From positions 3,360,001 through 3,392,000 of the forward strand of contig NC_014833.1 in the NCBI RefSeq assembly GCF_000179635.2: a stretch of DNA of 32,000 bases, written 5' to 3'. This document shows, piece by piece, positions 6,952-19,897 of this stretch. The stretch's first letter is position 1; every line of letters starts with the position of its first letter. The notes under the pieces are model-generated. The model had not been told where the DNA came from and ran no database searches. It saw only the letters and a program-made list of their open reading frames with translations. Source of the DNA: Ruminococcus albus 7 = DSM 20455. GTDB taxonomy: Bacteria; Bacillota; Clostridia; Oscillospirales; Ruminococcaceae. A program made the position numbers and the translations under genes.

Positions 6952-6997
6952 TCTAAATTCTGGTTTGGTTTATCTTAGCAGTTGTATAAAATACAAT

Positions 6998-7027
6998 GCC
7001 CCGAAGCACTTTGAAGTGCTTCGGGGC
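6998..7027 (-). terminator. strong hairpin terminator between convergent genes, with a T-run only on the minus strand
   Basis: gccccgaagcac tttgaa gtgcttcggggc is a perfect 12-bp stem with a 6-nt loop. On the minus strand it is followed by attgtatttta. It may also stop the plus-strand GNAT transcript. Confidence 0.7.
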
Positions 7028-7070
7028 AAAACTTCTATATGAGTATCTGTTTTACGGCAGGGGCGGTATT

Positions 7071-7760
7071 TTATTTGCTTGTGTCACCGATGCCGTATTT
7101 ATCTTTCAGCCTTACGAATATTCTTTCTGCGGGCTTTACGAACAACACGAGGAATATGCAGTTCGATACCATATAGCTAACCGTGAACCATGCTGAGGTG
7201 AGGGTCAGCCCGAGAAATCTTTCGGGGGTGAATCCGCCGCCCAGCCATAACACGCTGCATATATCCATAAACACTGAATAACACGCACCTGCAGCCACGC
7301 CGAACACGCACAGCAGCAGGGGCTTTTTTTTCAGTTTACTTCCCACAAGACCTGCCAGCAGACCTATTATACCCCACACCATCATCTGGAAAGGAGTCCA
7401 TATCCCCTGGGTAAAGAAGAAATTTGATATCAGTGCTGTAAGTGCACCTATCATGAATCCCTGTTCAGCCCCTAGGTATATACCTGCAAGTATTATCACA
7501 GCCGCGCAGGGTTTGAAAGCGGGCAGAGGTGCGAATATTATCCTTCCTGCCACAGAAAGTGCCGTCATCACTGCTGTCAGTGCCACCTCGCCCGAAGCCG
7601 CTTCTCTCCGCTCGAACCTTGCGAAGAATATGCCGCATACAGCCACCGCAGCCGAACCTATCAGCCAGACCGCAGCCCTGTCCCTGAATATCACGCAGCC
7701 ACCTGCGATAAGTGCCATTGATCCTGTCAGCAAAGCCGCCTTCACCGACCTGCGCATCAT
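7071..7760 (-). CDS. ECF transporter S (substrate-capture) component, specificity unknown
   Basis: About 6 TM helices, small size, motif QGIWTPFQMMVWGIIG. ATGA overlap with the upstream ATPase gene. Last gene of a T / A-A' / S module. Confidence 0.75.
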   Translation of the reverse strand: MMRRSVKAALLTGSMALIAGGCVIFRDRAAVWLIGSAAVAVCGIFFARFERREAASGEVALTAVMTALSVAGRIIFAPLPAFKPCAAVIILAGIYLGAEQGFMIGALTALISNFFFTQGIWTPFQMMVWGIIGLLAGLVGSKLKKKPLLLCVFGVAAGACYSVFMDICSVLWLGGGFTPERFLGLTLTSAWFTVSYMVSNCIFLVLFVKPAERIFVRLKDKYGIGDTSK

Positions 7761-9343
7761 TCAACTCCCCCTGCCGCCAGCCGCAGCATCTCTGCAGTGT
7801 ATGCATTTTTGACCTCGCCGCGTGCTATCCTGCCTGCAGCGGTACTGAGATATCCTGCCTTCGCGAAAAATCCTGCCGCAGGCATCAGGCTCTCCACACG
7901 TCCGCCGCACAGTATACCACAGCTGTCTGCGGTTTCTGCCGCGTATTCCATATCATGGGTCACAGTCAGCACTGCCCTGCCCTCAGCGCAAAGCTTTCTG
8001 ACCATATCCCCTATACGCCTGCGTGCCTCAGCATCCAGACCCTTTGTGGGCTCGTCCAGCAGAAGTATCTCAGGCTCGCATAAAAGCACCCTGCCAAGAC
8101 CGCACAGCTGCATCTCACCGCCGCTGAGGTCATATGGGTGCATATCCCCGAGGTGTCCGCAGCCCATACGCTCAAGCATCTCATCAGCCCTGTCCTCAGG
8201 CTTTCCCATAGCCCTCAGTGCATAGATATAATCCTCGCGCACCGTCGGCTGAACAAACAGGTCTGCCGCCTCCTGCGGAAGCATCGCAGTAACAGCACCC
8301 TGCTTTTTCTGCCGTTTCCCGAAGACTTCCACCTTGCCCGAGTAAGCCCTGCAAAGTCCTGCAAGACACCTCAGCAGAGTGGTCTTGCCGCTGCCGTTAG
8401 CCCCGATGAGTGCCAGATGCTCTCCCCTGTGCAGAAGTATATCCGCCCCTGCCAGTATATCATCATCCTTGCGCCCCCACGCGAACCTTACTCCCTCAGC
8501 ACGCAAAGCATCCTCCCCGAAGGTCTTCCTTTCACCAAGAGGCACCTCTCTCTTATGAGGTATCTCAGCCAGCAGCCGCCTGCCCTCACGCACCGTCAGC
8601 GGTACAGGCTCATACCCTGCAAAAGCCCTTGCTGCCGCAGGCATAAAGCTCTCTGCCGCCTTTACGGCTGCTGTTTCACGGGGTGTACCGTCCGCAATTA
8701 TCCTGCCGTCTTCAAGGAATATCACCCTGTCACATTCTGCAAACAGCAGTTCGGTACTGTGCTCCGCAATTATCACCGTCATACCCGTTTCACGGTTAAG
8801 CCGAAGTATCAGGGCGCTCATATCCTCAGCCGTCACAGGGTCAAGTCGGCTGAAAGGCTCGTCAAGCAGAAGTATCTCAGGCTGCATGACAAGTGCCGCA
8901 CAAAGGCTCACCAACTGCTTTTCACCGCCCGAAAGCTCACTCAGTTTCCGCTCCGCAAGCTTTCCCAGCCCGAAACGGGTTATGGTTTCCGCCGCAAGCC
9001 GACGTACCTCCGCCGCATCAAGCCCTGCATTCTCAGGAGCAAACATTATCTCACCGCGCACCCTGTCACTCACAAAGCCGTCCTCGGGGGACTGTGCCGC
9101 ATACCCGACCTTCGGCTGAGGGCTCACTGCCTTCTCCCCGAATATCCTTATCTCCCCTGTCATATCGCCCCTCGGGGATATCTCAGGCTTCAGCAGTTTC
9201 AGCAATGTGGTCTTGCCGCAGCCCGAATGCCCCATAAGCATCACAAGCTCGCCCCTGCCTATCCTGATATCTATGTCCTGCAGTACAGGTGCATCAGCAC
9301 TGCTGTAACGAAACGTCAGTCCCTTGCAGTAAACAGCGTCCAT
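7757..9343 (-). CDS. energy-coupling factor transporter ATPase, fused duplicated A-A' protein
   Basis: Two full ABC cassettes: GHSGCGKTTLL / LSGGEKQ / LLLDEP and GANGSGKTTLL / LSGGEMQ / LLLDEP. Start placed at the internal ATG (MDAVYCKGL...) with ggagagg RBS. The tracked ORF extends to 9385. Confidence 0.9.
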   Translation of the reverse strand: MDAVYCKGLTFRYSSADAPVLQDIDIRIGRGELVMLMGHSGCGKTTLLKLLKPEISPRGDMTGEIRIFGEKAVSPQPKVGYAAQSPEDGFVSDRVRGEIMFAPENAGLDAAEVRRLAAETITRFGLGKLAERKLSELSGGEKQLVSLCAALVMQPEILLLDEPFSRLDPVTAEDMSALILRLNRETGMTVIIAEHSTELLFAECDRVIFLEDGRIIADGTPRETAAVKAAESFMPAAARAFAGYEPVPLTVREGRRLLAEIPHKREVPLGERKTFGEDALRAEGVRFAWGRKDDDILAGADILLHRGEHLALIGANGSGKTTLLRCLAGLCRAYSGKVEVFGKRQKKQGAVTAMLPQEAADLFVQPTVREDYIYALRAMGKPEDRADEMLERMGCGHLGDMHPYDLSGGEMQLCGLGRVLLCEPEILLLDEPTKGLDAEARRRIGDMVRKLCAEGRAVLTVTHDMEYAAETADSCGILCGGRVESLMPAAGFFAKAGYLSTAAGRIARGEVKNAYTAEMLRLAAGGVE

Positions 9344-10176
9344 TGAAGCCTCTCCTTTCCCAGTATAATAAGCGGCAGCATACATTCCGCAAGATATACC
9401 GCCGTCATAACGAGCTCATATCTTCCGAAGTCTATCGTCGGGAAAAACTCCGTTGCTCCGCCCATTGACGAAAGCACCAGACCTGCGGCTGTAAGCAGTA
9501 CCACCGCACCAATGGATACCATGTCCTTAGCCCTCAGTGCCCTCCTGTCAGAAAATCTCACGGGATGCGTGCCGTATCCACGGGCATTCATGCTCTGTGC
9601 CGCACCTGCAGCCGCCTCTGCCGACCAAGCCATGCAGGCAGTAAATACCGCCCCGACTTCTCCCAGCCGACCTGTAGGACTGTTCTCCCTGAAAAGCCCT
9701 GCACCGCGCTGCGCCTCGCTTATCCTTCTGTTTTTCTGTATCAGCCGCGGTATGAACCCGAGGGTCATACTGATAGTCATGGCAAGCCTCGGAGAATATC
9801 TCCCGAATATGCCCAGCATCTCACGCTCGTTCACAATACTTCGCATGACCGCCAGCCATACCCCCGCACCGCTCAGCGAAAGTCCAAGCTCCAGCCCGTA
9901 AAGCATGGATTCCAGCGTGTAGGGACGGTCATTCACAAAGAGCAGGACAGTCATTCCCCTGTGTGAGAATATGGGGTCAATAACAGCCGTAGCCGCACAT
10001 ATCACCAGTACACCTGCCGCCCATTTCAGCCCCCTGCGCCAGCCGTCATACAGCGCCATGCACATAAGCCCCGTCACTGTCCCGACACCTGCCGCGCAAA
10101 GTGACCTGGGGAACATTATCATCACCAGTATACCCACTACAGCCGCTATACGCGTCAGCGGCGCAAAACTCTTCAT
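9316..10176 (-). CDS. energy-coupling factor transporter transmembrane (T) component, CbiQ/EcfT family
   Basis: Polytopic membrane protein with the T-component coupling-helix motif ...SMNARGYG (Ala-Arg-Gly) and an upstream EAQRGAG. ATGA overlap with the upstream gene. Confidence 0.85.
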   Translation of the reverse strand: MKSFAPLTRIAAVVGILVMIMFPRSLCAAGVGTVTGLMCMALYDGWRRGLKWAAGVLVICAATAVIDPIFSHRGMTVLLFVNDRPYTLESMLYGLELGLSLSGAGVWLAVMRSIVNEREMLGIFGRYSPRLAMTISMTLGFIPRLIQKNRRISEAQRGAGLFRENSPTGRLGEVGAVFTACMAWSAEAAAGAAQSMNARGYGTHPVRFSDRRALRAKDMVSIGAVVLLTAAGLVLSSMGGATEFFPTIDFGRYELVMTAVYLAECMLPLIILGKERLQWTLFTARD

Positions 10177-10634
10177 CTGTCCGCCTCCCCGATAAAGCTG
10201 TCAACATATGTGAACACTATCTCGTCACCGCACTCGGGCTGATACTCGCCGCAGTTGATATCGGGGGCTGTACCGTTCACGGTGTATATCCAGCCGCTCT
10301 CAGCACCATAGTCAAATTCTTCCAGACCGCCTATACCGCTTATGTATACTGCCCTGCCGCCCTTGGTATCAAGGTCTATGCCCTCATACCTCAGCACTCT
10401 CGCGGCAACATCATATACGCTGTCACCGGAAACCAGTGCATATCTTCCCTCAAGGGAAATTCCGCCGTTCACCGCAGAGCTGTCCACCTTTATAGTGACA
10501 TACTCTCCGTCCTCTGTGACCTCAGTCGGGTGGAGCGCATAGTACTCCTCAGGGGTCTTTATATCCACAAAGAGGACAGCCGCTGTCAGTACAGCCGCCG
10601 CACCGCCTATTAATATTATATCCCCTGTTCTCAT
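10173..10634 (-). CDS. membrane-anchored DUF4430 domain protein (transcobalamin beta-domain-like)
   Basis: N-terminal TM anchor. C-terminal EEFDYGAESGWIYTVNGTAPDINCGEYQPECGDEIVFTY matches the DUF4430 signature (SGW-Y-VNG ... GD-I-F-Y). Confidence 0.8.
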   Translation of the reverse strand: MRTGDIILIGGAAAVLTAAVLFVDIKTPEEYYALHPTEVTEDGEYVTIKVDSSAVNGGISLEGRYALVSGDSVYDVAARVLRYEGIDLDTKGGRAVYISGIGGLEEFDYGAESGWIYTVNGTAPDINCGEYQPECGDEIVFTYVDSFIGEADR

Positions 10635-10655
10635 GCTCTCAGCTCCCGTCCATGA

Positions 10656-12467
10656 TCAATACAGCCCTCGCAGCCGCCGTATCAGACTTTTTATGCGCCC
10701 CTGTTTTTTAGAAGCCCTCAGTGCTTCCTCATAGAATCTCTTTGCCTTTTCCAAAGCCTTGTCATCGGGGGCTTTGTCGGAAAATCTCAGTTCCTCATAA
10801 GCCCTCTCGGATTCAGCGAACCGTGTGCCAAGCAGACCCTCTGCTTTCTCTGCCAGTACCTCGGGGGGAAGTCCGTGTAGTCCCAGCACCTCCTCCATAA
10901 GCTGTCTGCCCTGAAAATGATCAGCCTTCAGCGCCGCAGTATCATCATGCTTTCTCCGCAGTGACCACCTGTATGCCGCCCTTATCCTGCCTGCCGCCAA
11001 TGCCGCCGCAAGTATGCCAAAGGGCATCAGCATAAGCCTTCCCGAGGTTTTTGTGGTTTCCTTTTCGGCACGTATCTCTGCGGCTGTACGCGGCGGTGCC
11101 GAACGGTATATGATATCCTCCGCCGATGAGGTAAGTCCGTCACTTTCCTCACCGTCCGCGGAAGTCCCCTCGGGAAGAAGCGGAGAGCTTTCTTCATACT
11201 CCCGTGAAGCTTCAAACACTGACCAGCCTGCACCGTCGATGTATACCTCTGCCCATTCACGTTGCTCGCCGTCTGCAAGCCTTGCTTTGCCGCCTTCGGG
11301 CATACTCTTAAAATATATGCCCTTTACTGTTCTCGCGGCTATACCGCAGCTTCTCGCAATATCCACTGTCAGCTGCGCATGATCGCTGCTGTCAGCCGCT
11401 TTGTCCGAAAGCTCATTCCTCACAGCCGTCCTTACAGCTGCAAGTTTAACATCAAGGGGCTGTGTACCGTCCACAGGGTACTTCTCACGTAGCTTTTCTT
11501 CCTCATCAGCTGTCAGGCTGCCGTAAGCAGAATACACATACTCGCGGTAAAGTCCCTCGCGGTCAAGATATTCGCCTTCTTTCAACTGTGTCATCAGCCT
11601 GAATATCTCCTTATCTGCCTGCGGACACACCACGTATCCGCCTTCAGTATATTCCGAACATACTCCTGCAGGGATAAGATCTTCACCGACATTAACTTTC
11701 TCCATCGGCAGTACAGCGCCTGCAGATCCCATAAGCTGACCTTTCTGTGTCATCTCATCGAAGCCTGCTTCACGCAGGGTTTTCATTATCGCTGAACCTC
11801 TTGCATACTGCGCCTTGCTGCAGTGCGGCTCCTCGTAGCTCTCTGCCAGATAAAGGGTCATACCCTCTGCTGCCGATACTTCGCCTGCAGGCGGCAGTTC
11901 GGGCAGCCTTATCAGCACCGCAGGCAGGGCTATTACCGCCGCCCCCAGTGAAAGCACAGCACGCCTCATATCCTTTGCACCGAGTATAAGCACCGATACC
12001 GCCAGTGCGACCGCACCGCAGACAAGCAGGCTGCTGCCGCCGAAAAGCACGCTCCCCGCAGCAGCCGCTATCCCCCACAGTACCGCTGCCGCTCTCACTC
12101 CTGCGGCTGAATACACCGCACAGGATATGCCGCAGAAGATAAGCACTGCAATATAAGCACTGTCAGCCGCCCCTGCCACAGGCACATACATCAGACCGCG
12201 CTTTATCGTATACATATACTCAGCACTGTCGGCACAAAGGGCAAATTCTGCCCTAGCCCTGTCATGGAGGATACCTGCCGCCAGCCCGCCGCATAAGGCA
12301 GGCAAAAAGCCCCATATCCGTCCTAAACGCTCAGCGAGATATGCCGTCAGCACACACAGGAACAGAGCTGCCGCTCCAGCGTACAGCCCACCCCATATAC
12401 CTACTGTCAGTGCCGTCCCCACCCCGAAAACTACGGGTGCGGAGATATACGTTCTCTTTTCTTCCAT
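10656..12467 (-). CDS. transglutaminase-like polytopic membrane protein (TgpA-like) with DUF4129-like C-terminal region; catalytic triad apparently substituted
   Basis: About 6 N-terminal TM helices. Core ...ARSCGIAARTVKGIY...REWAEVYIDGAGWSVFEAS aligns to the transglutaminase core (GIPAR ... HAWAEVY..GW..FDP). A further TM helix and a helical C-terminal tail follow. Sits downstream of MoxR and DUF58. Confidence 0.8.
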   Translation of the reverse strand: MEEKRTYISAPVVFGVGTALTVGIWGGLYAGAAALFLCVLTAYLAERLGRIWGFLPALCGGLAAGILHDRARAEFALCADSAEYMYTIKRGLMYVPVAGAADSAYIAVLIFCGISCAVYSAAGVRAAAVLWGIAAAAGSVLFGGSSLLVCGAVALAVSVLILGAKDMRRAVLSLGAAVIALPAVLIRLPELPPAGEVSAAEGMTLYLAESYEEPHCSKAQYARGSAIMKTLREAGFDEMTQKGQLMGSAGAVLPMEKVNVGEDLIPAGVCSEYTEGGYVVCPQADKEIFRLMTQLKEGEYLDREGLYREYVYSAYGSLTADEEEKLREKYPVDGTQPLDVKLAAVRTAVRNELSDKAADSSDHAQLTVDIARSCGIAARTVKGIYFKSMPEGGKARLADGEQREWAEVYIDGAGWSVFEASREYEESSPLLPEGTSADGEESDGLTSSAEDIIYRSAPPRTAAEIRAEKETTKTSGRLMLMPFGILAAALAAGRIRAAYRWSLRRKHDDTAALKADHFQGRQLMEEVLGLHGLPPEVLAEKAEGLLGTRFAESERAYEELRFSDKAPDDKALEKAKRFYEEALRASKKQGRIKSLIRRLRGLY

Positions 12468-12481
12468 TATCGCTTATACTC

Positions 12482-13405
12482 TCATATACCGTCTATTATC
12501 GTGATACGCTCATCGTTTATGTCCGTATTTACGGCGAATGCGATGATATTACCTTCATCCGCCCTGCTGCAAAGCTTTTCGAGAAAGCTCACGCCAACAG
12601 ACTTATACATCGGGAAATGCAGTACCTCATACATCACAGTTTCACTGTCCGCATTCTCCGTATATCTGAAGTCATCCTCACCGTAAGGCAGTACCAGTCC
12701 GTACTCCACCCCACGCAGGGACAATACCTGTGCCAGACCGCACATAGCCTCTGCCAGTACTCCTGCCCTGTCACCTGCGCCATAGTCCGCAAACAGCCAC
12801 AGCTTGTCCGATCTTTCGGGGATATAGGTGTTTATGTACGGCTTGCCGAAACGGTGTGTAAGTTTCAGGTTTACCTTGCGCAGCGGCTCATCGGGACGTG
12901 CCTCTCTTGCACCGTCAGGTTCATTCTCCCCCACAGCAGCCTCCAGCATATCGTACACCTCAGCCGCAGGAGGATCGGGCATAACAGTTACATAGCCCTC
13001 CGCACAGCATACAACAGACCGCTTTGTTATACCGGGTATATCCTTTCTGTAAAAGCTCATATACCTTATCAGCAGACCGCCGCAGTTATCCTGCGCAGGC
13101 AGCACATATCTGCGTTCATCTCTTATGTCCACATCAAGGGCTGTCCTTTCACCTGTGACTATATTCTCGCAAAGCACCCTGCCGCGCAGACGTTTCTTTC
13201 CTGCGAATATCAGTACCGGAGATCCGCCCTTGTTTATGCATACCCTCTCATAGCTGACATTTACTTCGCCCTTGTCCGCCAGATTTTCAGCCGCAGCCGC
13301 GATCAGCACTGCCAGCATACCTGCCGCGAAGTACAGACCTATTTCATTGAAAAGACCTGCCGCCAGCGCCGCCGCAAAGCACAGCGCGAATATCAGCGTC
13401 CTCAC
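12482..13405 (-). CDS. DUF58 domain protein (vWA-like partner of MoxR)
   Basis: GTG start in a GTGA overlap with moxR. Two N-terminal TM helices. GAREARPDEPLRKVNLKLTHRFGKPYINTY aligns to the DUF58 motif G-R-Y--GD--R-I-W----R. Classical position between MoxR and the transglutaminase-like gene. Confidence 0.75.
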   Translation of the reverse strand: MRTLIFALCFAAALAAGLFNEIGLYFAAGMLAVLIAAAAENLADKGEVNVSYERVCINKGGSPVLIFAGKKRLRGRVLCENIVTGERTALDVDIRDERRYVLPAQDNCGGLLIRYMSFYRKDIPGITKRSVVCCAEGYVTVMPDPPAAEVYDMLEAAVGENEPDGAREARPDEPLRKVNLKLTHRFGKPYINTYIPERSDKLWLFADYGAGDRAGVLAEAMCGLAQVLSLRGVEYGLVLPYGEDDFRYTENADSETVMYEVLHFPMYKSVGVSFLEKLCSRADEGNIIAFAVNTDINDERITIIDGI

Positions 13406-14343
13406 AGGTTCTCCTTGTTTTCGGGGTAAGGCAGTTCTTTGAGTATTTCTTCTAGTATCCCCTCGGGAGTCTTACCTGAGGCACGTGCCTCCCTTGTCAG
13501 CACCAGTCTGTGCGCACATACGGGTATAAAGCAGGTACGTATATCACGGGGCACCACATGATCTCTGCCGTCAAGATAAGCCCCTGCCTTTGCCAGCCTG
13601 AAAAGTGCCAGCGCACCTCTCGGGGATATGCCGCCCTCGGTGTATCTGCTGTCAGCCGCCTTCTGAATAAGGTCACACAGATAGTCCGTCACTTCTTCAC
13701 TGACAGTCACCTTGTTTATCTCAGCCCTGATAGCATCGAGGTCTTCCGCATTACACACCTGCCTGACACTGTCCAGCGGGTCGGAATCCTTTCTATCCGT
13801 AATAAGCCTTTTCAGTGCTTCCCTGTCAGGGGCACCAAGCCTGAGCCTTTCCATGAATCTGTCAAGCTGTGAAAGCGGTATAGCCGAGGTGCCTGCTGTA
13901 CCCGTAGGATTCTGGGTAGCTATCACCGTAAAGTAAGGCGAAAGCTCATGGGTAATGCCGTCTACCGTAAGACCGCGTTCTTCCATGGCTTCAAGCAGTG
14001 CCGCCTGAGTCCTGCCGGATGTCCTGTTCAGCTCGTCTGCCAGCAGAAGGTCTGTCATAGCCGCACCCTCATGGTACACGAACTCGCCCTTGCCCTCATC
14101 GTAAGCCGAATAACCCGTTATATCCGAAGCTGTAGTATCAGGTGTCATCTGTATCCTCCTGAACCTGAGACCCATAGTCCTGGTAAGCGCCAGCGCAAGG
14201 GTAGTCTTGCCCGTACCGGGAGTATCCTCCAGCAGCACATGACCGCCTGCCAGCACACCTGCTATCAGCAGTTCAACGGTATCGTCCTTGCCGATTATGA
14301 CCTTTGTCAGTTGTTCCTTTATTTTCAGGGGAATGGTCTTCAT
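13402..14343 (-). CDS. MoxR family AAA+ ATPase
   Basis: Walker A LLEDTPGTGKTT and Walker B LLADELNR. RTSGRTQAALLEAMEERGLTVDG and ATQNP motifs are typical of MoxR/AAA_3. Confidence 0.9.
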   Translation of the reverse strand: MKTIPLKIKEQLTKVIIGKDDTVELLIAGVLAGGHVLLEDTPGTGKTTLALALTRTMGLRFRRIQMTPDTTASDITGYSAYDEGKGEFVYHEGAAMTDLLLADELNRTSGRTQAALLEAMEERGLTVDGITHELSPYFTVIATQNPTGTAGTSAIPLSQLDRFMERLRLGAPDREALKRLITDRKDSDPLDSVRQVCNAEDLDAIRAEINKVTVSEEVTDYLCDLIQKAADSRYTEGGISPRGALALFRLAKAGAYLDGRDHVVPRDIRTCFIPVCAHRLVLTREARASGKTPEGILEEILKELPYPENKENL

Positions 14344-15515
14344 CTGTTCTTTTCCTTTCTTCTTCGCATAAGGATGCCGCCCGATACAGCCGCTATCCCG
14401 AAAACAGCTATCACCGCAGATACAGAAGCCGTAACTTTTTTCCCTTTCGCAGAGCTTTTTTTCACAGCAGGCGCTGTGGTGTTCCTGTTTTTAGCGGCAG
14501 CCATAGCATCAAGCGTTGTCCTTTGAGGCTTTACTGCACTTCCTTCGTTCATATCGTACACAGACCTTTCGCCCGACCTCAGTCTTTGCAGGCTGCAAAG
14601 GGCTATCAGCGCCTGAGATGATGCAAGCTCGCTGCTGCTTTCGCCCTTTTTGTGAGCGAAGCCGCCGTCATCATTGGCAAAGCTTATCATAGCATCTGTA
14701 AGCCATGCGAACCTTTCATCAGTGTCGGGGTCTATATCAAGGCAGCACAGCGCACATATCATCTGCGCTGTACTCTCACAATTGTCGGCACTGCTTTTGT
14801 TCTCAGCCAGATATCCAAGGGCTGCAGCTATGGTGCCCTCAGCTTCCTCACAGTTTCTGTAAGGTGAAAGCGCCTGAAGTGCCATAGCAGTTATGTCGAT
14901 ATCGCTCCTGCCGTCACCTGCCGTGAGCGAATAGCCGCCGTCGGAGTTCTGTGCAGAGATAATGGTATCTATCATATCTTTCCTGTCGGGGTCTGCTCCC
15001 TCGGGCATCTTCCAGTCACAGCTGTCAACAGCTATCAGTCCCCATATCCATGCGTTCAGCCCCTGCTTGTCCAGTGACCTGTTCTCTCCGCGGAGATAGG
15101 TGCCGCACCCCAGCAGGTCAACACCCGATACATCAGCGGGGTCAGCCCCGAGGCAAAGCCCTGTGAGCACTGCCCTATGCCAGTCCGTAGGGACTATCTT
15201 CCCGATGCTTTTCTCGTCCGAATAATCCTCCTGTATACGTTTCTCCCATGCCGCACGGTACTCGGCTGTATCATCCTCCAGCCCTGCTCTTACCGCGCCT
15301 ATCGCCAGCCAGTCGGAGCTGTCGAACCCGGCATCCTCTGCTATACTGCCCGAAAGAAGGCTGTCCTTTTCGGGTATACCGTTCTTATTCTTTTCAAATG
15401 TGATGATGCCCCTTGCATAGCCCTCTGCCTGACCGGTCTCCAGTGCTGATGCACTTACAGGCACAAGCAGCATCACTGCTGCCGCGGATAATGCCGCAAG
15501 TCTTTTCAACATCAT
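14340..15515 (-). CDS. secreted alpha/alpha-toroid protein (prenyltransferase / squalene-oxidase repeat family; transcobalamin alpha-domain-like) with C-terminal TM anchor
   Basis: Signal peptide (AAAVMLLVPVSASA). Repeated Q-x-x-DGG-[YF] motifs (SAQNSDGGYS, ANDDGGFA). Helical-repeat signatures (DITAMALQAL, SSQALIAL). C-terminal TM helix plus RRRKEK stop-transfer. Confidence 0.75.
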   Translation of the reverse strand: MMLKRLAALSAAAVMLLVPVSASALETGQAEGYARGIITFEKNKNGIPEKDSLLSGSIAEDAGFDSSDWLAIGAVRAGLEDDTAEYRAAWEKRIQEDYSDEKSIGKIVPTDWHRAVLTGLCLGADPADVSGVDLLGCGTYLRGENRSLDKQGLNAWIWGLIAVDSCDWKMPEGADPDRKDMIDTIISAQNSDGGYSLTAGDGRSDIDITAMALQALSPYRNCEEAEGTIAAALGYLAENKSSADNCESTAQMICALCCLDIDPDTDERFAWLTDAMISFANDDGGFAHKKGESSSELASSQALIALCSLQRLRSGERSVYDMNEGSAVKPQRTTLDAMAAAKNRNTTAPAVKKSSAKGKKVTASVSAVIAVFGIAAVSGGILMRRRKEKNR

Positions 15516-17419
15516 TCACCTCCAACATCATTTCCAAGGTCAAGGGAGAATGCCAGCGTAACACGCTCGCCGTCGGCAAATACTGCCGAGGACATAGCGT
15601 ATGAAGGCTTTCTTCCGTTGCGGCTGTAAAGCCAACCCGAGCCCGGTGCAAAATCAAATTCACCGAGAGAATCGGCATCACTGCTGTTGTTGGGCGTTAC
15701 TCCCGCAGCTGCAAGATATGCCCTTGACTCCTCCGTCAGTGCAGCATCTGCAAATCTGCCCTGCATACGTATCCTGTCAAGATACCTGCTGCTGTCACTG
15801 CCACGTGAGGATACCTCAAAACCGTTTTCTTCAAGGAACCTCAGCATTGTATCAAAGCCGTTTTCGCCCTCCAGTACGGGAAAGCTGTCATCTTCACAAA
15901 GCGTACCCAGCCCGACGGCATCAGCTTTTACGGATACAGCTATCCTGCCTACCTCAGTACCTTTCTCAACAGCATCGCAGTTTATTTTATAGAAGAACTC
16001 TGATATCCTGCCTGCCCTGTCTTTCAGCTTTACAGTTACAGCATTCTCACCTGCACGCAGGGAAAGTATATATCCCGTACAGGTGCTGTCCTCCCATTTC
16101 CGCGGTACCTTTGTGCCGCCGCATATCACCTCGGCACTGTCCGAATACAGCCGCACTCCGTCGCAGTCAACTGCCCTGAAAGTCAGTGTATACGCACTGC
16201 CCTTTACCGTTATACCGTCGGTAAGGCTAATGCTTTCAAACCGCGGAAGTCTTTCCTCTGCTGCCGGCGGAAGAGATATTACGGTGAATGTCTGCTCAAA
16301 ACCGTCTTTTCCGTCACGTACCCACAGACGTATCTTATTGTTGCCCTCATTCAGTTTTGCGGTATAATCGCTTTCACCGCGAAGTGCTTTGTCGTTTACC
16401 AGCACTATCAGCTTCGGGGAATTCCCTCCCACTGCCTTTGCGCTGAAGGTGATACTGTCGGAATACACTGTGATATCAGAAAGGTCTGTTATCAGCGAGA
16501 GTTCTCGTACAGGTATATATGTAACAGAAAAATCAAGGACAGTATCCCCCGAGGACAGTTTTATCATGTTCTCGCCCTCGTTAAGGTTAACGGTGAATAC
16601 ATCCCTGCCTTCGACTGTCCTGCCGTTCAGCCATACCTCCATGCCGTCTTCGCAGGAGGCTGTAAAGGTGAATACGGGATCGTAAACATCGCAGTCTTTA
16701 AGGTCTGTGACTATCTCCGAAGCAGGAGATGACAGGTACACCGTATAATCGCGGAAAGCCCTGTATATCCTGTTTTCGCCGTCCTTATAGGTACAGCTTA
16801 CCCTGAGGGAGTTAGCACCCTCTCTCAGGCGCACCCTGCCTGCGAACCCTGTCATAAGAGAACCGTTGACCTCAACATCACAGCGGACAACTTCAAGATC
16901 ATCTGCAAGATGAGTTACAGTGAAAAAGTAGGTACTGTCACTGACGGTCTCACCGTCCTTTATCGAGGCAGTGAAGTACTCACGGTCGGCTTGTCTGCCG
17001 TCGGGGGTCACCTTTGCAGGTTCGGTGGCTTCGTCGGGGACCTGCACTGTCTGTACCGAGGCTTTGCTGTCATCCGCAGAAGATGTATCATCCTCTCCCG
17101 TGACGATGAACGATGCAGGTACATCTGCCGAAGAAGCATCACTGCCGCTGTCAACGGGTGCTGTATCGTTATCGGGTATGCTGTCGGGCACTGAGCTTTC
17201 ATCGGTACGGGAGCTGGTATCTTCCCTTTCGGAGCTGCTGTCCCTGCCCTTCAGCCCTTCGGCTGATATCTCGGGCAGCATGACTTCACGCTGAGTTATG
17301 CCGACAGATATATCCTCACGGGGAGCACTGCGGTAAAAGTGCGCAGCAAAGCAGACAGCCCCTGCTGTAAGCACAGCAGCTGCCGCAGATACTATCAGAC
17401 TTTTCCGCTTTTTTTCCAC
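15512..17419 (-). CDS. membrane-anchored surface protein: Ser/Asp-rich linker, four Ig-like repeats, C-terminal DUF4430 domain
   Basis: GTG start with gggagg RBS. N-terminal TM helix and an S/D/T-rich low-complexity stretch. Four repeats of about 90 aa, each ending L-EG-N-I-L...F-V-Y. C-terminal LGEFDFAPGSGWLYSRNGRKP...ADGERVTLAF is paralogous to 10173-10634. Confidence 0.75.
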   Translation of the reverse strand: MEKKRKSLIVSAAAAVLTAGAVCFAAHFYRSAPREDISVGITQREVMLPEISAEGLKGRDSSSEREDTSSRTDESSVPDSIPDNDTAPVDSGSDASSADVPASFIVTGEDDTSSADDSKASVQTVQVPDEATEPAKVTPDGRQADREYFTASIKDGETVSDSTYFFTVTHLADDLEVVRCDVEVNGSLMTGFAGRVRLREGANSLRVSCTYKDGENRIYRAFRDYTVYLSSPASEIVTDLKDCDVYDPVFTFTASCEDGMEVWLNGRTVEGRDVFTVNLNEGENMIKLSSGDTVLDFSVTYIPVRELSLITDLSDITVYSDSITFSAKAVGGNSPKLIVLVNDKALRGESDYTAKLNEGNNKIRLWVRDGKDGFEQTFTVISLPPAAEERLPRFESISLTDGITVKGSAYTLTFRAVDCDGVRLYSDSAEVICGGTKVPRKWEDSTCTGYILSLRAGENAVTVKLKDRAGRISEFFYKINCDAVEKGTEVGRIAVSVKADAVGLGTLCEDDSFPVLEGENGFDTMLRFLEENGFEVSSRGSDSSRYLDRIRMQGRFADAALTEESRAYLAAAGVTPNNSSDADSLGEFDFAPGSGWLYSRNGRKPSYAMSSAVFADGERVTLAFSLDLGNDVGGE

Positions 17420-17558
17420 GATGAGCTACCTCCCGAAAAAGCATAAAGACCTGCGCCCACGGTCTGAGAAAGTAAACAGTCCATGTGACGCAGATCTGTT
17501 TTTTATAGGTCAAAGTTTATGACATACCCCTGAACGGGATGTGCATGACAAAGAGAGA

Positions 17559-19436
17559 TCATCTCTCCTTGTTTATAAGCTTCTTGCCCTTTATATTTGC
17601 TGCTGTTAACGTGATATCACTGACATTCACCTTGCCGTCTGCATTCACATCAGCCGCATTGAAGCTGTACTTATCTATCACTTTCCTGCTCTTTATATTA
17701 GCTGCAACTATTGCCAGATCAGTGATATTCACTTTGCCGTCACCGTTGACATCGCCTTTATGAGCAAGTGCGCGCTTATACTGATCATCATTTTCTGCAA
17801 CGAGAACGTCTATATCCTGTGATACAGAAGGTGCTTTGCCGTTACCGTTATACAGACCGTAACTGAAGCTTGCTGTGAGGACTTCATCATCGGCACTGAA
17901 CTTATCAACGCTGAATGTAAGATCCTTGCCTGTGATATCTCCTATGGTCTTCACGGGACCGTTTTTGATATCAACAGTATACTCCTTATCGGCAGGTGTT
18001 TCATCTGCCTTGAAGACGAAGGTCTTTACACCATTGGGATGTATGGTGATATCGGGGCACTGGATATCGGGATCGGATATTCCGCTGCCTATTGCAAGGA
18101 TATTGAATGAATCGTTGCGTATATAGAGAAGTCCTGTTTCCTCGTCATATACAGGATCAACTGCGCAGTACTGTGCGTGCTCACCCTGGGGTCTGAACAC
18201 AACAGGAGGACAGGTATGCTTTTTGCCTGCAAGGTCTGTTTCCTCTACAGTATCGGCAGGAGCGGTCATGCCTGCTTTATCCCTGAGCATACGTACAACG
18301 CCCGAAGTACCGTTTTCAACATAGTATATAACATTATAGCCTTCCTTGTCAACGCCTGCGAAAACGCCCTTAGCCTTGCATTCTGCGGAAGTTTCAACGG
18401 CATAAGCAGGTTCAAGCTTTATCTTGCCTTCGGCCTCAACGATATCGAAAACACCGATGTGGGAACCGTTATAATCGTCCCAGCCTGTTCCCTGGAAAGT
18501 AACGTATACCCTGCCGTTTTCAACTATCGGGGTCGAGGTGCAGGTGAAACCATTCGGGCCAAGAAGAGAAGCTGTGATCCCGTAGCCGTAGACCTCACCG
18601 TTAGTGTCGATCAGATGCACACCGCCTTCACGCGAGGTATAGTAGATCACACCATCCTTGAGTACCAGCTTGCTGCGGATATCATCATGTGCGGTACCGA
18701 GCTTACTGATGAGCTCGCCTGTTGCATCGTCAACGGTGACGGTGCGGTTATTTTCGCCTTCCTCGTTAGCGCCTTCTTTGCCGTTCTCGACACCGAAGGT
18801 CACCTTACCGTCGTATACAACAGCGCTTGTCCAGTAGAAGCCGCCCGCATTGGTGTACTCCCATTCTGCAGTCTTTTCCTCATCTGTCTTTTCGGTATCC
18901 CCATCGGCTGCGCTTACCTTTACGAAATCGGCATCTGCCTCATCGGAGTTCCAGAAGCCTGTATAGAGATAGCCGTTTTCAACTACGATATCGCAGGTGG
19001 GCTTGCCGCCGTTCTTGTTTGTGTATACCCACAGTGATGTAAGGGTCTCGGCATCGAAAGCCTGTATCTTGCCGCCGTCGAGAGCCATGAACACTTTGCC
19101 GTCAGCATAAACGGGGCCTTTGGTAGCGTACATAGCTTTACCTGCCATTTTGCCGTTCAATACCTCTTTGCCTGTGAACTTATCTATCTTCTTGATATTA
19201 TCTGCCGAACAGATATAGAGATATCCGTTATCAGCAACAGTGAAGCCTGTGGGGGAATCCGACCACATCATCTTGTCTTCGCCTATCTGATCCGCCCAGT
19301 ACAGGACATTGTCATCAGCCTTGGTGAGATCGGGCGAAAGTGTCTTATCGGCAGCAAACACGTTTAATGCCGCTGCATTTACAGCCAGTATAGATGCGCA
19401 GAACGCACTGAGTATTTTTACAGTTGTTTTTTTCAT
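17559..19436 (-). CDS. secreted PQQ-like beta-propeller repeat protein with C-terminal type-I dockerin
   Basis: RBS ggaga and signal peptide (ALNVFA/AD). PQQ_2-like blades (GKVFMALDGGKIQAFDAETLTSLWVY). C-terminal duplicated calcium-binding segments GDVNGDGKVNITDLAIVAANIK and ADVNADGKVNVSDITLTAANIK form the dockerin. Confidence 0.85.
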   Translation of the reverse strand: MKKTTVKILSAFCASILAVNAAALNVFAADKTLSPDLTKADDNVLYWADQIGEDKMMWSDSPTGFTVADNGYLYICSADNIKKIDKFTGKEVLNGKMAGKAMYATKGPVYADGKVFMALDGGKIQAFDAETLTSLWVYTNKNGGKPTCDIVVENGYLYTGFWNSDEADADFVKVSAADGDTEKTDEEKTAEWEYTNAGGFYWTSAVVYDGKVTFGVENGKEGANEEGENNRTVTVDDATGELISKLGTAHDDIRSKLVLKDGVIYYTSREGGVHLIDTNGEVYGYGITASLLGPNGFTCTSTPIVENGRVYVTFQGTGWDDYNGSHIGVFDIVEAEGKIKLEPAYAVETSAECKAKGVFAGVDKEGYNVIYYVENGTSGVVRMLRDKAGMTAPADTVEETDLAGKKHTCPPVVFRPQGEHAQYCAVDPVYDEETGLLYIRNDSFNILAIGSGISDPDIQCPDITIHPNGVKTFVFKADETPADKEYTVDIKNGPVKTIGDITGKDLTFSVDKFSADDEVLTASFSYGLYNGNGKAPSVSQDIDVLVAENDDQYKRALAHKGDVNGDGKVNITDLAIVAANIKSRKVIDKYSFNAADVNADGKVNVSDITLTAANIKGKKLINKER

Positions 19437-19495
19437 TTTTCATTCTCCGTTCTTGTTTAAGATTTCAGCATTTTTTAAATGCCGATGATAAAGTA

Positions 19496-19524
19496 ATTAT
19501 ATCACATAGCTTTTATTTTTTCAA
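19496..19524 (-). promoter_or_regulatory. sigma-A type promoter of the minus-strand operon
   Basis: On the minus strand: TTGAAA, 17 nt spacer, TATAAT. The -10 element is about 60 nt upstream of the ATG at 19436. A small AT-rich palindrome gcattt-ttt-aaatgc lies in the short leader. Confidence 0.6.
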
Positions 19525-19897
19525 TAGTATATACCACCCAAACAACACGCGCGGTATATCAATAAGCTATGTGCAGGTATAGTTTTAAGCTATGCCGCAG
19601 ATGATCTTACGCTGTCTGATGTGCTTTACCGTGTGTAAAAATTTAATGTCTATTCAGTTGTCAAGATGCAGATATCCCCTTATACAGTATGACACGTCAC
19701 TTCATATCCCGCAGTCATAGTCAGCATCAGCCTGCCATCGTGCGCACAAGGGGACGATATATGTAAACGGCACTTATGAGGTGCCGGGATCTTTGGCTTT
19801 ATACAGAGGGGCATTTCGGAAAGTATCTGTGTACTTACCAAAAAGGTGATCGGCGGGTCTGCCTGATAAACCCCTTCTATATACAGCGAAAAACTGT

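Follow-up and report, generated by a model that had tools for sequence, protein, structure and literature searches.

What is served by a run of ten genes that sets an importer of the vitamin-transporter class beside several extracytoplasmic proteins and a MoxR-type ATPase with two membrane partners? The question is raised by a locus of Ruminococcus albus 7 (DSM 20455), which we analyzed within a 32,000-nucleotide stretch of its genome (the window; NC_014833.1, positions 3,360,001 to 3,392,000). Here ten minus-strand open reading frames (ORFs), g1 to g10 in the order of transcription, encode a beta-propeller protein with a dockerin (g1), two membrane-anchored proteins with SLBB (DUF4430-like) domains (g2 and g7), an alpha/alpha-toroid protein (g3), a MoxR ATPase, a DUF58 protein and a transglutaminase-like membrane protein (g4 to g6, the trio), and the EcfT, fused EcfA-A' and S subunits of an energy-coupling factor (ECF) transporter (g8 to g10); coordinates are collected in Table 1.

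The original prediction, made from the DNA letters, had read these genes as a machine for the capture, hand-off and import of an unidentified ligand. As an architecture for surface capture and import, this is supported by the ECF module and the anchored binders. The ligand, moreover, is inferable as B12-type, because the S component is of the CbrT family, the SLBB and toroid binders are transcobalamin-like and sister cassettes carry cobalamin riboswitches. The reading that we favor, as a reasonably probable one, is that the locus encodes a dedicated (group I) CbrT-type ECF importer of corrinoids (B12, cobinamide and related cobamides) equipped with cell-surface capture proteins; a role of the MoxR trio in binder assembly or ligand release is speculative. 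Competition for B12-family cofactors shapes gut and rumen communities, and their acquisition by Gram-positive fibre degraders is poorly characterized; the operon is carried by R. albus and also by R. bicirculans, which is common and abundant in the human gut.

The importer and its probable surface binders

By its matches to solved structures, the S component (g10) belongs to the CbrT family. A single-sequence search of the PDB gave 6FNP_A (CbrT) as its best solved relative (E 1.9e-6), and a profile of the g10 family aligned with the same chain over residues 5-179 of 182 (E 6.5e-18); 6FNP shows ECF-CbrT, through which L. delbrueckii transports vitamin B12 and cobinamide (PMC5997447). The sole further PDB match of this profile was HmpT (4HZU_S; E 1.4e-3), and no RibU, FolT, ThiT or BioY chain was among its matches. 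When compared with the 182-residue CbrT, g10 shows an N-terminal extension of ~50 residues (within residues 1-55) containing one or two extra hydrophobic segments, a feature common to the whole g10 family (224-242 residues).

The partner subunits complete the transporter. The EcfT candidate g8 scores slightly under the CbiQ cut-off (Table 1), and its orthologues in three homologous loci (L019, L020 and L022) exceed it. In NCBIfam, g9 is matched best by ECF_ATPase_1 (274 bits) and ECF_ATPase_2 (263 bits), in both cases under the equivalog cut-off, as a consequence of the fusion. Conservation extends to the gene order T, A-A', S, and the set has the features of group I (dedicated) ECF transporters. 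On the basis of homology and context, ATP-driven corrinoid import through EcfT, EcfAA' and a CbrT-like S component is a well-supported prediction.

The S-component family is broad (583 matches), with the R. bicirculans cluster found on at least 1000 contigs. Outside the clade of operons that bear the trio, the S component occurs in EcfT-EcfAA'-S cassettes, usually together with DUF4430 and toroid proteins. Directly upstream of three independent trio-less sister cassettes, with 48-50% identity in the S component, lie cobalamin-class riboswitches: RF00174 in L021/L090 (104 bits) and in L020 (47.8 bits), and AdoCbl-II in L089 (38.2 bits). We hold with reasonable confidence that the ligand is most probably a corrinoid, with heme as the main alternative.

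Outside the membrane, the anchored SLBB and toroid proteins are predicted to form a split transcobalamin-like binder, a view well supported by homology and context. The smaller SLBB protein, g7, carries the conserved motif SGW-Y-VNG, and a single-sequence PDB search with it returned no match. For g3, the family profile matched toroids of the SQHop-cyclase type in the PDB (E 6e-12), and orthologues score up to 48 bits against Prenyltrans; the protein is presumably the partner of the SLBB domains. It had been described as a secreted toroid protein; the toroid and a signal peptide are present, but with its C-terminal transmembrane (TM) anchor it is not simply secreted. The DUF4430 domain ascribed to the C-terminus of g2 is likewise upheld in part: Pfam DUF4430 is not significant for the window copy, but the region is homologous to DUF4430 domains in L019 and L021, its sequence can be aligned to the SLBB motif, and the R. 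bicirculans orthologue does match Pfam DUF4430. In a relative at L020, toroid and SLBB domains are fused in one polypeptide, which is the transcobalamin architecture.

The AlphaFold 2 (AF2) model of g1 (predicted local distance difference test score, pLDDT, 83) consists of an 8-bladed propeller, a beta-sandwich and a dockerin. The last of these scores 45.7 bits against Dockerin_1 (cut-off 22.9) and has the duplicated calcium-binding repeats DVNGDGKVNITD and DVNADGKVNVSD. The top 50 PDB matches of the model in Foldseek include BamB, YxaL, pyrroloquinoline quinone (PQQ) dehydrogenases and designed propellers; BtuG is not among these 50, and we rejected the idea that g1 is a BtuG-like B12 propeller. 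In the L005 lineage and in R. bicirculans (L030), the g1 orthologues have no dockerin and instead end in an NPxTG-like sorting signal. Because the one anchor is replaced by the other in these lineages, g1 appears to be displayed on the surface through interchangeable anchors, either a dockerin or a sortase-type signal. If so, cellulosome-type anchoring, here with a dockerin- or sortase-tethered accessory protein of a transporter, reaches beyond carbohydrate-active enzymes. The C-termini without dockerin consist of a Ser-rich linker, NP(N/A)TG, a hydrophobic segment and RKRK or KRRK (L030 4559-5305; L005 5201-5650). A dockerin is also found elsewhere in this family of loci: in two trio-less sister cassettes (L021 3168-5661 and L090 3166-5659), a DUF4430 protein with a dockerin is encoded behind the cobalamin riboswitch, and the gene just 5' of it has a faint cohesin match. 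Dockerin-tethered B12 binders may be a broader ruminococcal theme.

Conservation of the unit and the embedded MoxR module

In tblastn searches with the ten window proteins, every locus that no contig end interrupts proved to have all ten genes in unchanged order, and across the uncut loci this arrangement is kept in at least four divergent lineages. The R. albus group comprises L001-L016. The divergent rumen lineage L005/L006 has identities of 31-36% for g1, g3, g5 and g6 and different flanks (GH94; CheR/CheB/CheW), and L022 and L023 represent a further divergent lineage with g2 to g10 in unchanged order. In R. bicirculans, an exhaustive g5 profile search followed by a metagenome scan brought up ~55 human-gut loci with ten genes in the same order, their products being 33% (g1), 27% (g5), 25% (g6) and 47% (g10) identical to those of the window. 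Across the conserved loci, identity in g5 and g6 falls to 25-31%. Homologues thus co-localize in the same order elsewhere, different contexts included, which is the reverse of the fortuitous adjacency that the original prediction had allowed for; judged by this conservation of order, the ten genes form a real unit that evolution has preserved, and their adjacency is not fortuitous on any short timescale. Directly 3' of the S-component gene in L022 (10706-12094) and L023 (10732-12125) lie a gene for a LysR-type regulator, a candidate for the control of that version of the operon, and a short NrdD-like ORF.

The trio and the propeller set this operon type apart from its relatives. They co-occur, and neither is present in any of the six trio-less cassettes compared (6/6). 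Relative to those cassettes, the clade has gained the propeller at the 5' end and the MoxR, DUF58 and transglutaminase-like genes between the toroid and small SLBB genes, and no riboswitch was detected in its scanned loci. A neighbour-joining tree of concatenated EcfT, EcfAA' and S sequences separates trio-bearing from trio-less systems with a bootstrap of 100/100, consistent with a single acquisition of the trio in one clade that, as far as sampled, seems confined to Ruminococcus. The g5 family numbers 24 proteins in a collection of 5.8 billion and, among species-representative genomes, occurs in Ruminococcus only (R. albus strains and related metagenome-assembled genomes). One g1 outlier at 29% identity (P0162) and several intermediate g5 relatives aside, the g5 and g1 subfamilies are essentially confined to this operon type; at the loci of more distant DUF58 relatives (L079-L088), MoxR is present and the ECF and SLBB genes are absent.

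The first member of the trio is a regular MoxR. The g4 product, identical to R. albus 7 ADU23467.1, has the features of MoxR AAA+ proteins of the MRP subfamily: AAA_3 followed by AAA_lid_2, intact nucleotide motifs (PGTGKT, LLLADE, ATQNP and LDRF) and a DUF58-type gene, g5, adjoining it with a 4-nt overlap. The g5 copy in the window stays under the Pfam cut-off for DUF58 (PF01882; E 0.17), but 7 of 13 family members do match (best E 5.9e-5; R. bicirculans orthologue 5e-4), so that the DUF58 assignment made originally is best taken as a divergent match. Foldseek matches of the g5 model are generic Ig-like domains, and the segment with the DUF58 signature is of low confidence, so we make no statement on a vWA domain or metal-ion-dependent adhesion site. 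In P0175, a protein of 895 residues, a DUF58-like N-terminal half is fused to a transglutaminase-like membrane protein 30% identical to the corresponding gene product of L023; because this natural fusion exists, g5 and g6 may be expected to act together (a Rosetta-stone argument).

The third member, g6, has ~7 N-terminal TM segments, a domain of ~290 residues that contains Transglut_core, a further TM segment and a C-terminal tail of basic character; the positive-inside rule would put the transglutaminase-fold domain outside and the tail inside. A single-sequence PDB search found no match for g6, and the best PDB match of its family profile was a weak one to the periplasmic domain of P. aeruginosa TgpA (6G49; E 0.016). 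In the family alignment, the position of the catalytic Cys is occupied by S/S/E/E/A/Q/E in seven lineages and never by Cys, Arg replaces the catalytic His in the R. albus core group, the His being present elsewhere, and the Asp position is an invariant Glu. The protein had been called transglutaminase-like: this is right for the fold and does not extend to the catalytic Cys. Because the nucleophile is absent from all lineages, the domain appears to be a conserved, catalytically dead pseudo-enzyme that probably serves for binding or as a scaffold rather than for proteolysis or cross-linking.

Modules of the MoxR-DUF58-transglutaminase-like kind occur widely, and for some two decades no function has been known for them. 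Here the function of such a module is directly testable, because the operon has a measurable output (corrinoid binding or uptake) and offers four surface proteins as candidate clients.

Layout and regulatory signals

The ten co-oriented ORFs (7071-19436), together with the overlaps and gaps originally reported between them, were confirmed at their coordinates (Table 1). Five junctions (g2/g3, g3/g4, g4/g5, g7/g8 and g9/g10) are 4-nt ATGA/GTGA overlaps, so that translational coupling crosses the module boundaries g3/g4 and g4/g5; gaps of 14, 21 and 139 nt separate g5/g6, g6/g7 and g1/g2. The 28-nt overlap of g8 and g9 holds if g9 starts at ATG 9343, a reasonable choice because the Shine-Dalgarno sequence there (AAAGGAGAGG) is good and that of the alternative ATG 9385, which would give the longest ORF, is poor. 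Searches of Pfam and NCBIfam verified PQQ_2 plus Dockerin_1, the MoxR AAA_3, Transglut_core, DUF4430, two ABC_tran domains and the ECF S component.

Table 1. Genes and regulatory features of the operon, with positions counted in the window
Feature	Position	Strand	Basis
g1, secreted 8-bladed BamB/PQQ-type beta-propeller, then beta-sandwich and type I dockerin	17559..19436	-	Pfam PQQ_2, Dockerin_1
g2, N-terminally TM-anchored protein with acidic/Ser-rich linker, Ig/cadherin-like repeats and C-terminal SLBB (DUF4430-like) domain	15512..17419	-	Pfam Glucodextran_B, Cadherin-like; TM 8-26
g3, signal peptide, alpha/alpha-toroid domain, C-terminal TM anchor	14340..15515	-	Prenyltrans 26.4 bits, cut-off 26.5 (borderline); TM 365-383
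g4, MoxR-family AAA+ ATPase, cytoplasmic	13402..14343	-	AAA_3 158 bits, AAA_lid_2 76 bits
g5, divergent DUF58 protein: N-terminal TM hairpin, Ig-like sandwich, small alpha/beta domain	12482..13405	-	DUF58 signature motif; AF2 pLDDT 79
g6, TgpA-like polytopic membrane protein with transglutaminase-fold domain	10656..12467	-	Transglut_core 38.8 bits, cut-off 23; hydropathy
g7, N-terminally TM-anchored SLBB/DUF4430 (transcobalamin beta-domain-like) protein	10173..10634	-	DUF4430 59.9 bits; TM 5-23
g8, EcfT (CbiQ-family) transmembrane coupling subunit	9316..10176	-	CbiQ 24.0 bits, cut-off 25
g9, fused EcfA-EcfA' ATPase (ORF could reach 9385)	7757..9343	-	two ABC_tran domains, 182.7 bits
g10, CbrT-family ECF S component, presumed corrinoid-binding	7071..7760	-	PF07155 46.9 bits, cut-off 26.7
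Sigma-70-type promoter TTGAAA-17-TATAAT, extended -10 TG	19496..19524	-	11/12 match
Palindrome ATAGCTTAAAACTATA upstream of the promoter, possible operator	19578..19593	-	almost invariant in alignment of the upstream regions of the window and L008-L010
Intercistronic hairpin with U-rich tail, resembling a terminator, attenuator or stabilizer, g1-g2 gap	17435..17497	-	minimum free energy z-scores -4.6 and -3.6
Intrinsic terminator, 14-bp stem, 9 GC pairs, T-rich tail	6997..7028	-	terminator scan

A near-consensus promoter and a strong hairpin terminator had been predicted at the two ends of the operon, and both were recovered; nowhere else in the region is there a better promoter than the one at 19524-19496 or a better terminator than the one at 7028-6997. 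The promoter hexamers, together with TGTGATATA, are invariant or conserved in three relatives (L008-L010) whose proteins are only ~70% identical. Also upstream of the -35 element, in the window as in these three relatives, are a palindrome of the pattern ATAG(C/T)TT(A/T)AAACTATA and a TTATATACCGC block (~19545-19560, minus strand). The conserved palindrome may be an operator, a candidate to act in place of riboswitch control.

The gap between g1 and g2 (17420-17558, minus strand) has the predicted size but is not an empty spacer: it contains a hairpin followed by UUUAUGCUUUUU (fold z = -4.6), which a simple terminator scan had overlooked on account of a loop of >8 nt. A stable GC-rich hairpin stands at this position in every homologous locus examined (L001 2060-2150, L003 5525-5650, L005 5644-5738, L008 5805-5950 and L016 5820-5960), though the sequences differ. 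It is likely an internal attenuator or messenger RNA stabilizer that would raise the expression of g1 over that of the remaining genes; with such a conserved hairpin after the first gene, a uniform single transcript is therefore not to be assumed.

The flanking genes are unrelated, with teichoic-acid genes and a GNAT gene on one side and YpsA, LytR and RimP-NusA-IF2 on the other. In the window, the GC content of the operon is 0.527, against 0.446 and 0.487 in its flanks, and among the loci compared (the window, L008, L005, L013, L016 and L030) it lies 7-8 points over the flanks in R. albus-type lineages; it is not raised in R. bicirculans (0.466 against 0.469), nor is it in the trio-less cassettes. 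The elevated values may possibly reflect a composition rich in membrane segments and Ala, or past transfer. A 95-nt tRNA-Lys(CTT) called by ARAGORN within the g2 coding sequence (16796-16890, minus strand) has no counterpart in Rfam and is probably a false positive.

Competing readings and known systems

Put together on the reading that we favor, g8, g9 and g10 would form the ATP-driven importer, and g3 (the toroid), g7 (SLBB) and g2 (an Ig-like stalk plus a second SLBB domain) would supply both halves of a transcobalamin-like binder and keep the ligand near the S component, with capture presumably carried further outward by g2, which has a long stalk, and by g1, fixed to a cohesin or to the wall. 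The cytoplasmic ATPase g4, the membrane-tethered adaptor g5 and the TgpA-like g6, encoded between the toroid and SLBB genes, would constitute a membrane-spanning module. Its most likely task, as we see it, would be to draw on cytoplasmic ATP for the assembly, maturation or remodelling of the external binder complex, which may include the release of tightly bound ligand; an enzymatic action on the ligand would not be part of it. Ligand release is proposed because carriers of the transcobalamin type have practically zero off-rates, B12 being freed from them only through proteolysis (PMC5997447), and because there is no energy source outside the membrane; bacteria that use this fold on their surface therefore need a release mechanism, for which the embedded ATPase module is a candidate. 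Riboswitch control would have been lost in the trio-bearing variant, with regulation probably passing to the conserved promoter and operator, and the hairpin after g1 would probably provide for a higher dose of that protein.

One can go further and picture the trio as an ATP-driven transducer across the membrane, in which hydrolysis is relayed through the DUF58 adaptor and g6 to the external domain of the latter, and this dead domain pries the corrinoid from the high-affinity binders, or resets them, for the CbrT-type S component. We regard this extension as unlikely. If true, it would be a Gram-positive functional counterpart of TonB-energized release at the Gram-negative outer membrane, and it would give the widespread MoxR-DUF58-transglutaminase module its first defined client and an assay.

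Several observations weigh against a corrinoid importer served by the trio. No cobalamin riboswitch was found in the window at gathering score (nor between 17300 and 20200 even at E<5) or in any of the trio-bearing loci scanned; because none is detected, a direct regulatory tie to B12 is missing for this variant. Genes for B12-dependent enzymes or B12 salvage were not found in the window, a literature search on B12 auxotrophy in R. albus yielded nothing of use, and the g1 propeller shows no specific similarity in Foldseek to the B12-binding propeller BtuG. The family profiles of the toroid and SLBB proteins (A4 and A5) found no chain of transcobalamin, intrinsic factor or haptocorrin in the PDB, and because these searches missed the mammalian carriers, the link to transcobalamin rests on Pfam DUF4430 and on published structural analysis. 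The hairpin after g1 qualifies the view of a single transcript, the computed evidence does not reveal the function of the MoxR trio, whose role we infer, and a related operon of L. sakei has been tied experimentally to heme rather than to B12 (10.1101/864751).

The last point leads to a first rival, namely that the architecture is as described and the ligand is heme, another tetrapyrrole or a non-cobalt corrin-like molecule. Besides the experimental link of the L. sakei lsa1836-1840 operon to heme uptake (10.1101/864751), the lack of cobalamin riboswitches in trio-bearing operons would fit such a ligand, and Burroughs et al. allow for another metabolite in some SLBB systems (PMC1796856); yet the S component is specifically CbrT-like (E 6.5e-18), the nearest trio-less cassettes lie behind cobalamin-class riboswitches and the window holds no heme-related gene, and we would give this ligand only a minor chance. 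Alternatively, two unrelated systems could be adjacent by descent, the trio (perhaps with the propeller) being an envelope-maintenance module with no part in uptake. MoxR-DUF58-transglutaminase sets are indeed common on their own, as in the MoxR and DUF58 genes at L079-L088, where no ECF genes are present, in the PFNA cluster and in the mycobacterial moxR1 operon, and since all trio-bearing operons belong to one clade, confined to Ruminococcus, a single insertion suffices. What makes this doubtful, and in our judgment rather improbable, is where and how the trio is kept: it lies between two binder genes and not at the edge of the operon, an ATGA overlap couples its translation to that of the toroid gene, and it has held its position through a divergence of g5 and g6 down to 25-31% identity and through changes of the flanks. 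The near confinement of the g5 and g1 subfamilies to this operon type (bar P0162 and the intermediate g5 relatives) argues in the same direction.

Two further readings concern the ATPase itself, and both are far less probable. With a tetrapyrrole as ligand, MoxR and DUF58 might be thought of as AAA+ and vWA subunits of a chelatase (CobS/CobT or BchI/BchD) that inserts, removes or exchanges the metal or remodels the imported corrinoid, and g4 does give weak NCBIfam matches to BchD/ChlD (E 8.6e-12) and to a putative cobaltochelatase subunit (E 0.004). At 44 against 500 bits, such matches fall far short of the family cut-offs and express no more than the homology of AAA+ proteins in general, the assignment to AAA_3/MoxR is clear (158 bits), a large subunit like CobN or ChlH is lacking, and the remaining partner, g6, sits in the membrane and has a catalytically dead domain on the outside; on the NCBIfam scores we consider a chelatase ruled out, or very nearly so. 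The combination of MoxR with a propeller also recalls the ternary conflict (defence) systems of Kaur et al. 2020, in which the propeller is fused to the vWA protein and the P-loop is often GxxxTAKS, and g4 passes the Pfam bpMoxR cut-off (34.3 against 27 bits). In our operon, however, the propeller is secreted and encoded separately, not fused C-terminally to the vWA/DUF58 protein (g5 has none), the P-loop reads PGTGKT, the AAA_3 score is far above that of bpMoxR and the Gram-positive host lies outside the reported phyla, so that with its defining features absent this reading is effectively refuted.

The closest characterized relative of the importer is ECF-CbrT (6FNP; Santos et al. 2018, PMC5997447), with which it shares the S-component family and the use of EcfT with EcfA/A' ATPases. 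ECF-CbrT, however, relies on a shared (group II) ECF module and is encoded in an nrdJ-cbrS-cbrT-pduO cluster (PMC5997447), whereas here the module is dedicated, A and A' are fused, one operon adds four extracytoplasmic proteins and the MoxR trio, and g10 bears its N-terminal extension of ~50 residues.

For the surface proteins, the nearest precedents are the operons described by Burroughs et al. 2007 (PMC1796856), in which genes for surface SLBB proteins, often two paralogues and fused to Ig, toroid or beta-propeller domains, are combined with CbiO/CbiQ genes and which were predicted to scavenge B12 or its precursors, and the lsa1836-1840 operon of L. sakei, which encodes S, A-A', T and transcobalamin beta-like and alpha-like proteins (10.1101/864751). 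Like these, the R. albus operon encodes extracellular DUF4430/SLBB proteins, a toroid partner and Ig-like or propeller additions next to an ECF module. The term MoxR has 0 occurrences in PMC1796856, however, and the description of lsa1836-1840 names five genes, for ECF and binder proteins (10.1101/864751); the L. sakei system is also tied to heme, whereas several trio-less relatives of our operon have cobalamin riboswitches and the trio-bearing variant has none. The original prediction knew of no system uniting these parts, and this is half right: an ECF module with several binders, and indeed the core of ECF, SLBB and toroid proteins, was already known in 2007 (PMC1796856; see also 10.1101/864751), but the trio and the propeller inside such an operon are apparently unreported. 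Our search of the literature returned no paper linking MoxR with ECF transport.

In Bacteroides, the surface B12-capture lipoproteins BtuG and BtuH feed BtuB, and BtuG is a beta-propeller. The likeness to these is one of concept only, in that gut anaerobes use surface accessory proteins that include a propeller; there is no homology, and envelope type and transporter class differ. With transcobalamin, intrinsic factor and haptocorrin, the predicted binders share the alpha/alpha toroid and the beta-grasp SLBB domain that sandwich the corrinoid (PMC1796856), but the two domains of these mammalian carriers are here placed on separate membrane-anchored proteins (and fused in L020).

As for the trio, its order of MoxR, DUF58 and polytopic transglutaminase-like protein is that of the PFNA cluster of Bifidobacterium (pkb2-fn3-aaa_atp-duf58-tgm; PMC8430577), with TgpA (6G49) as a relative of the last, and in that cluster too a secreted Ig/FN3-type protein is associated. 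The literature on such modules (PMC8430577 for the PFNA cluster; the mycobacterial moxR1 operon) assigns them a general chaperone role only. The module described here differs from the PFNA cluster and TgpA in that its transglutaminase-fold domain has no catalytic Cys in any lineage, and in that it is embedded in the operon of a predicted vitamin importer, which points to a specific client.

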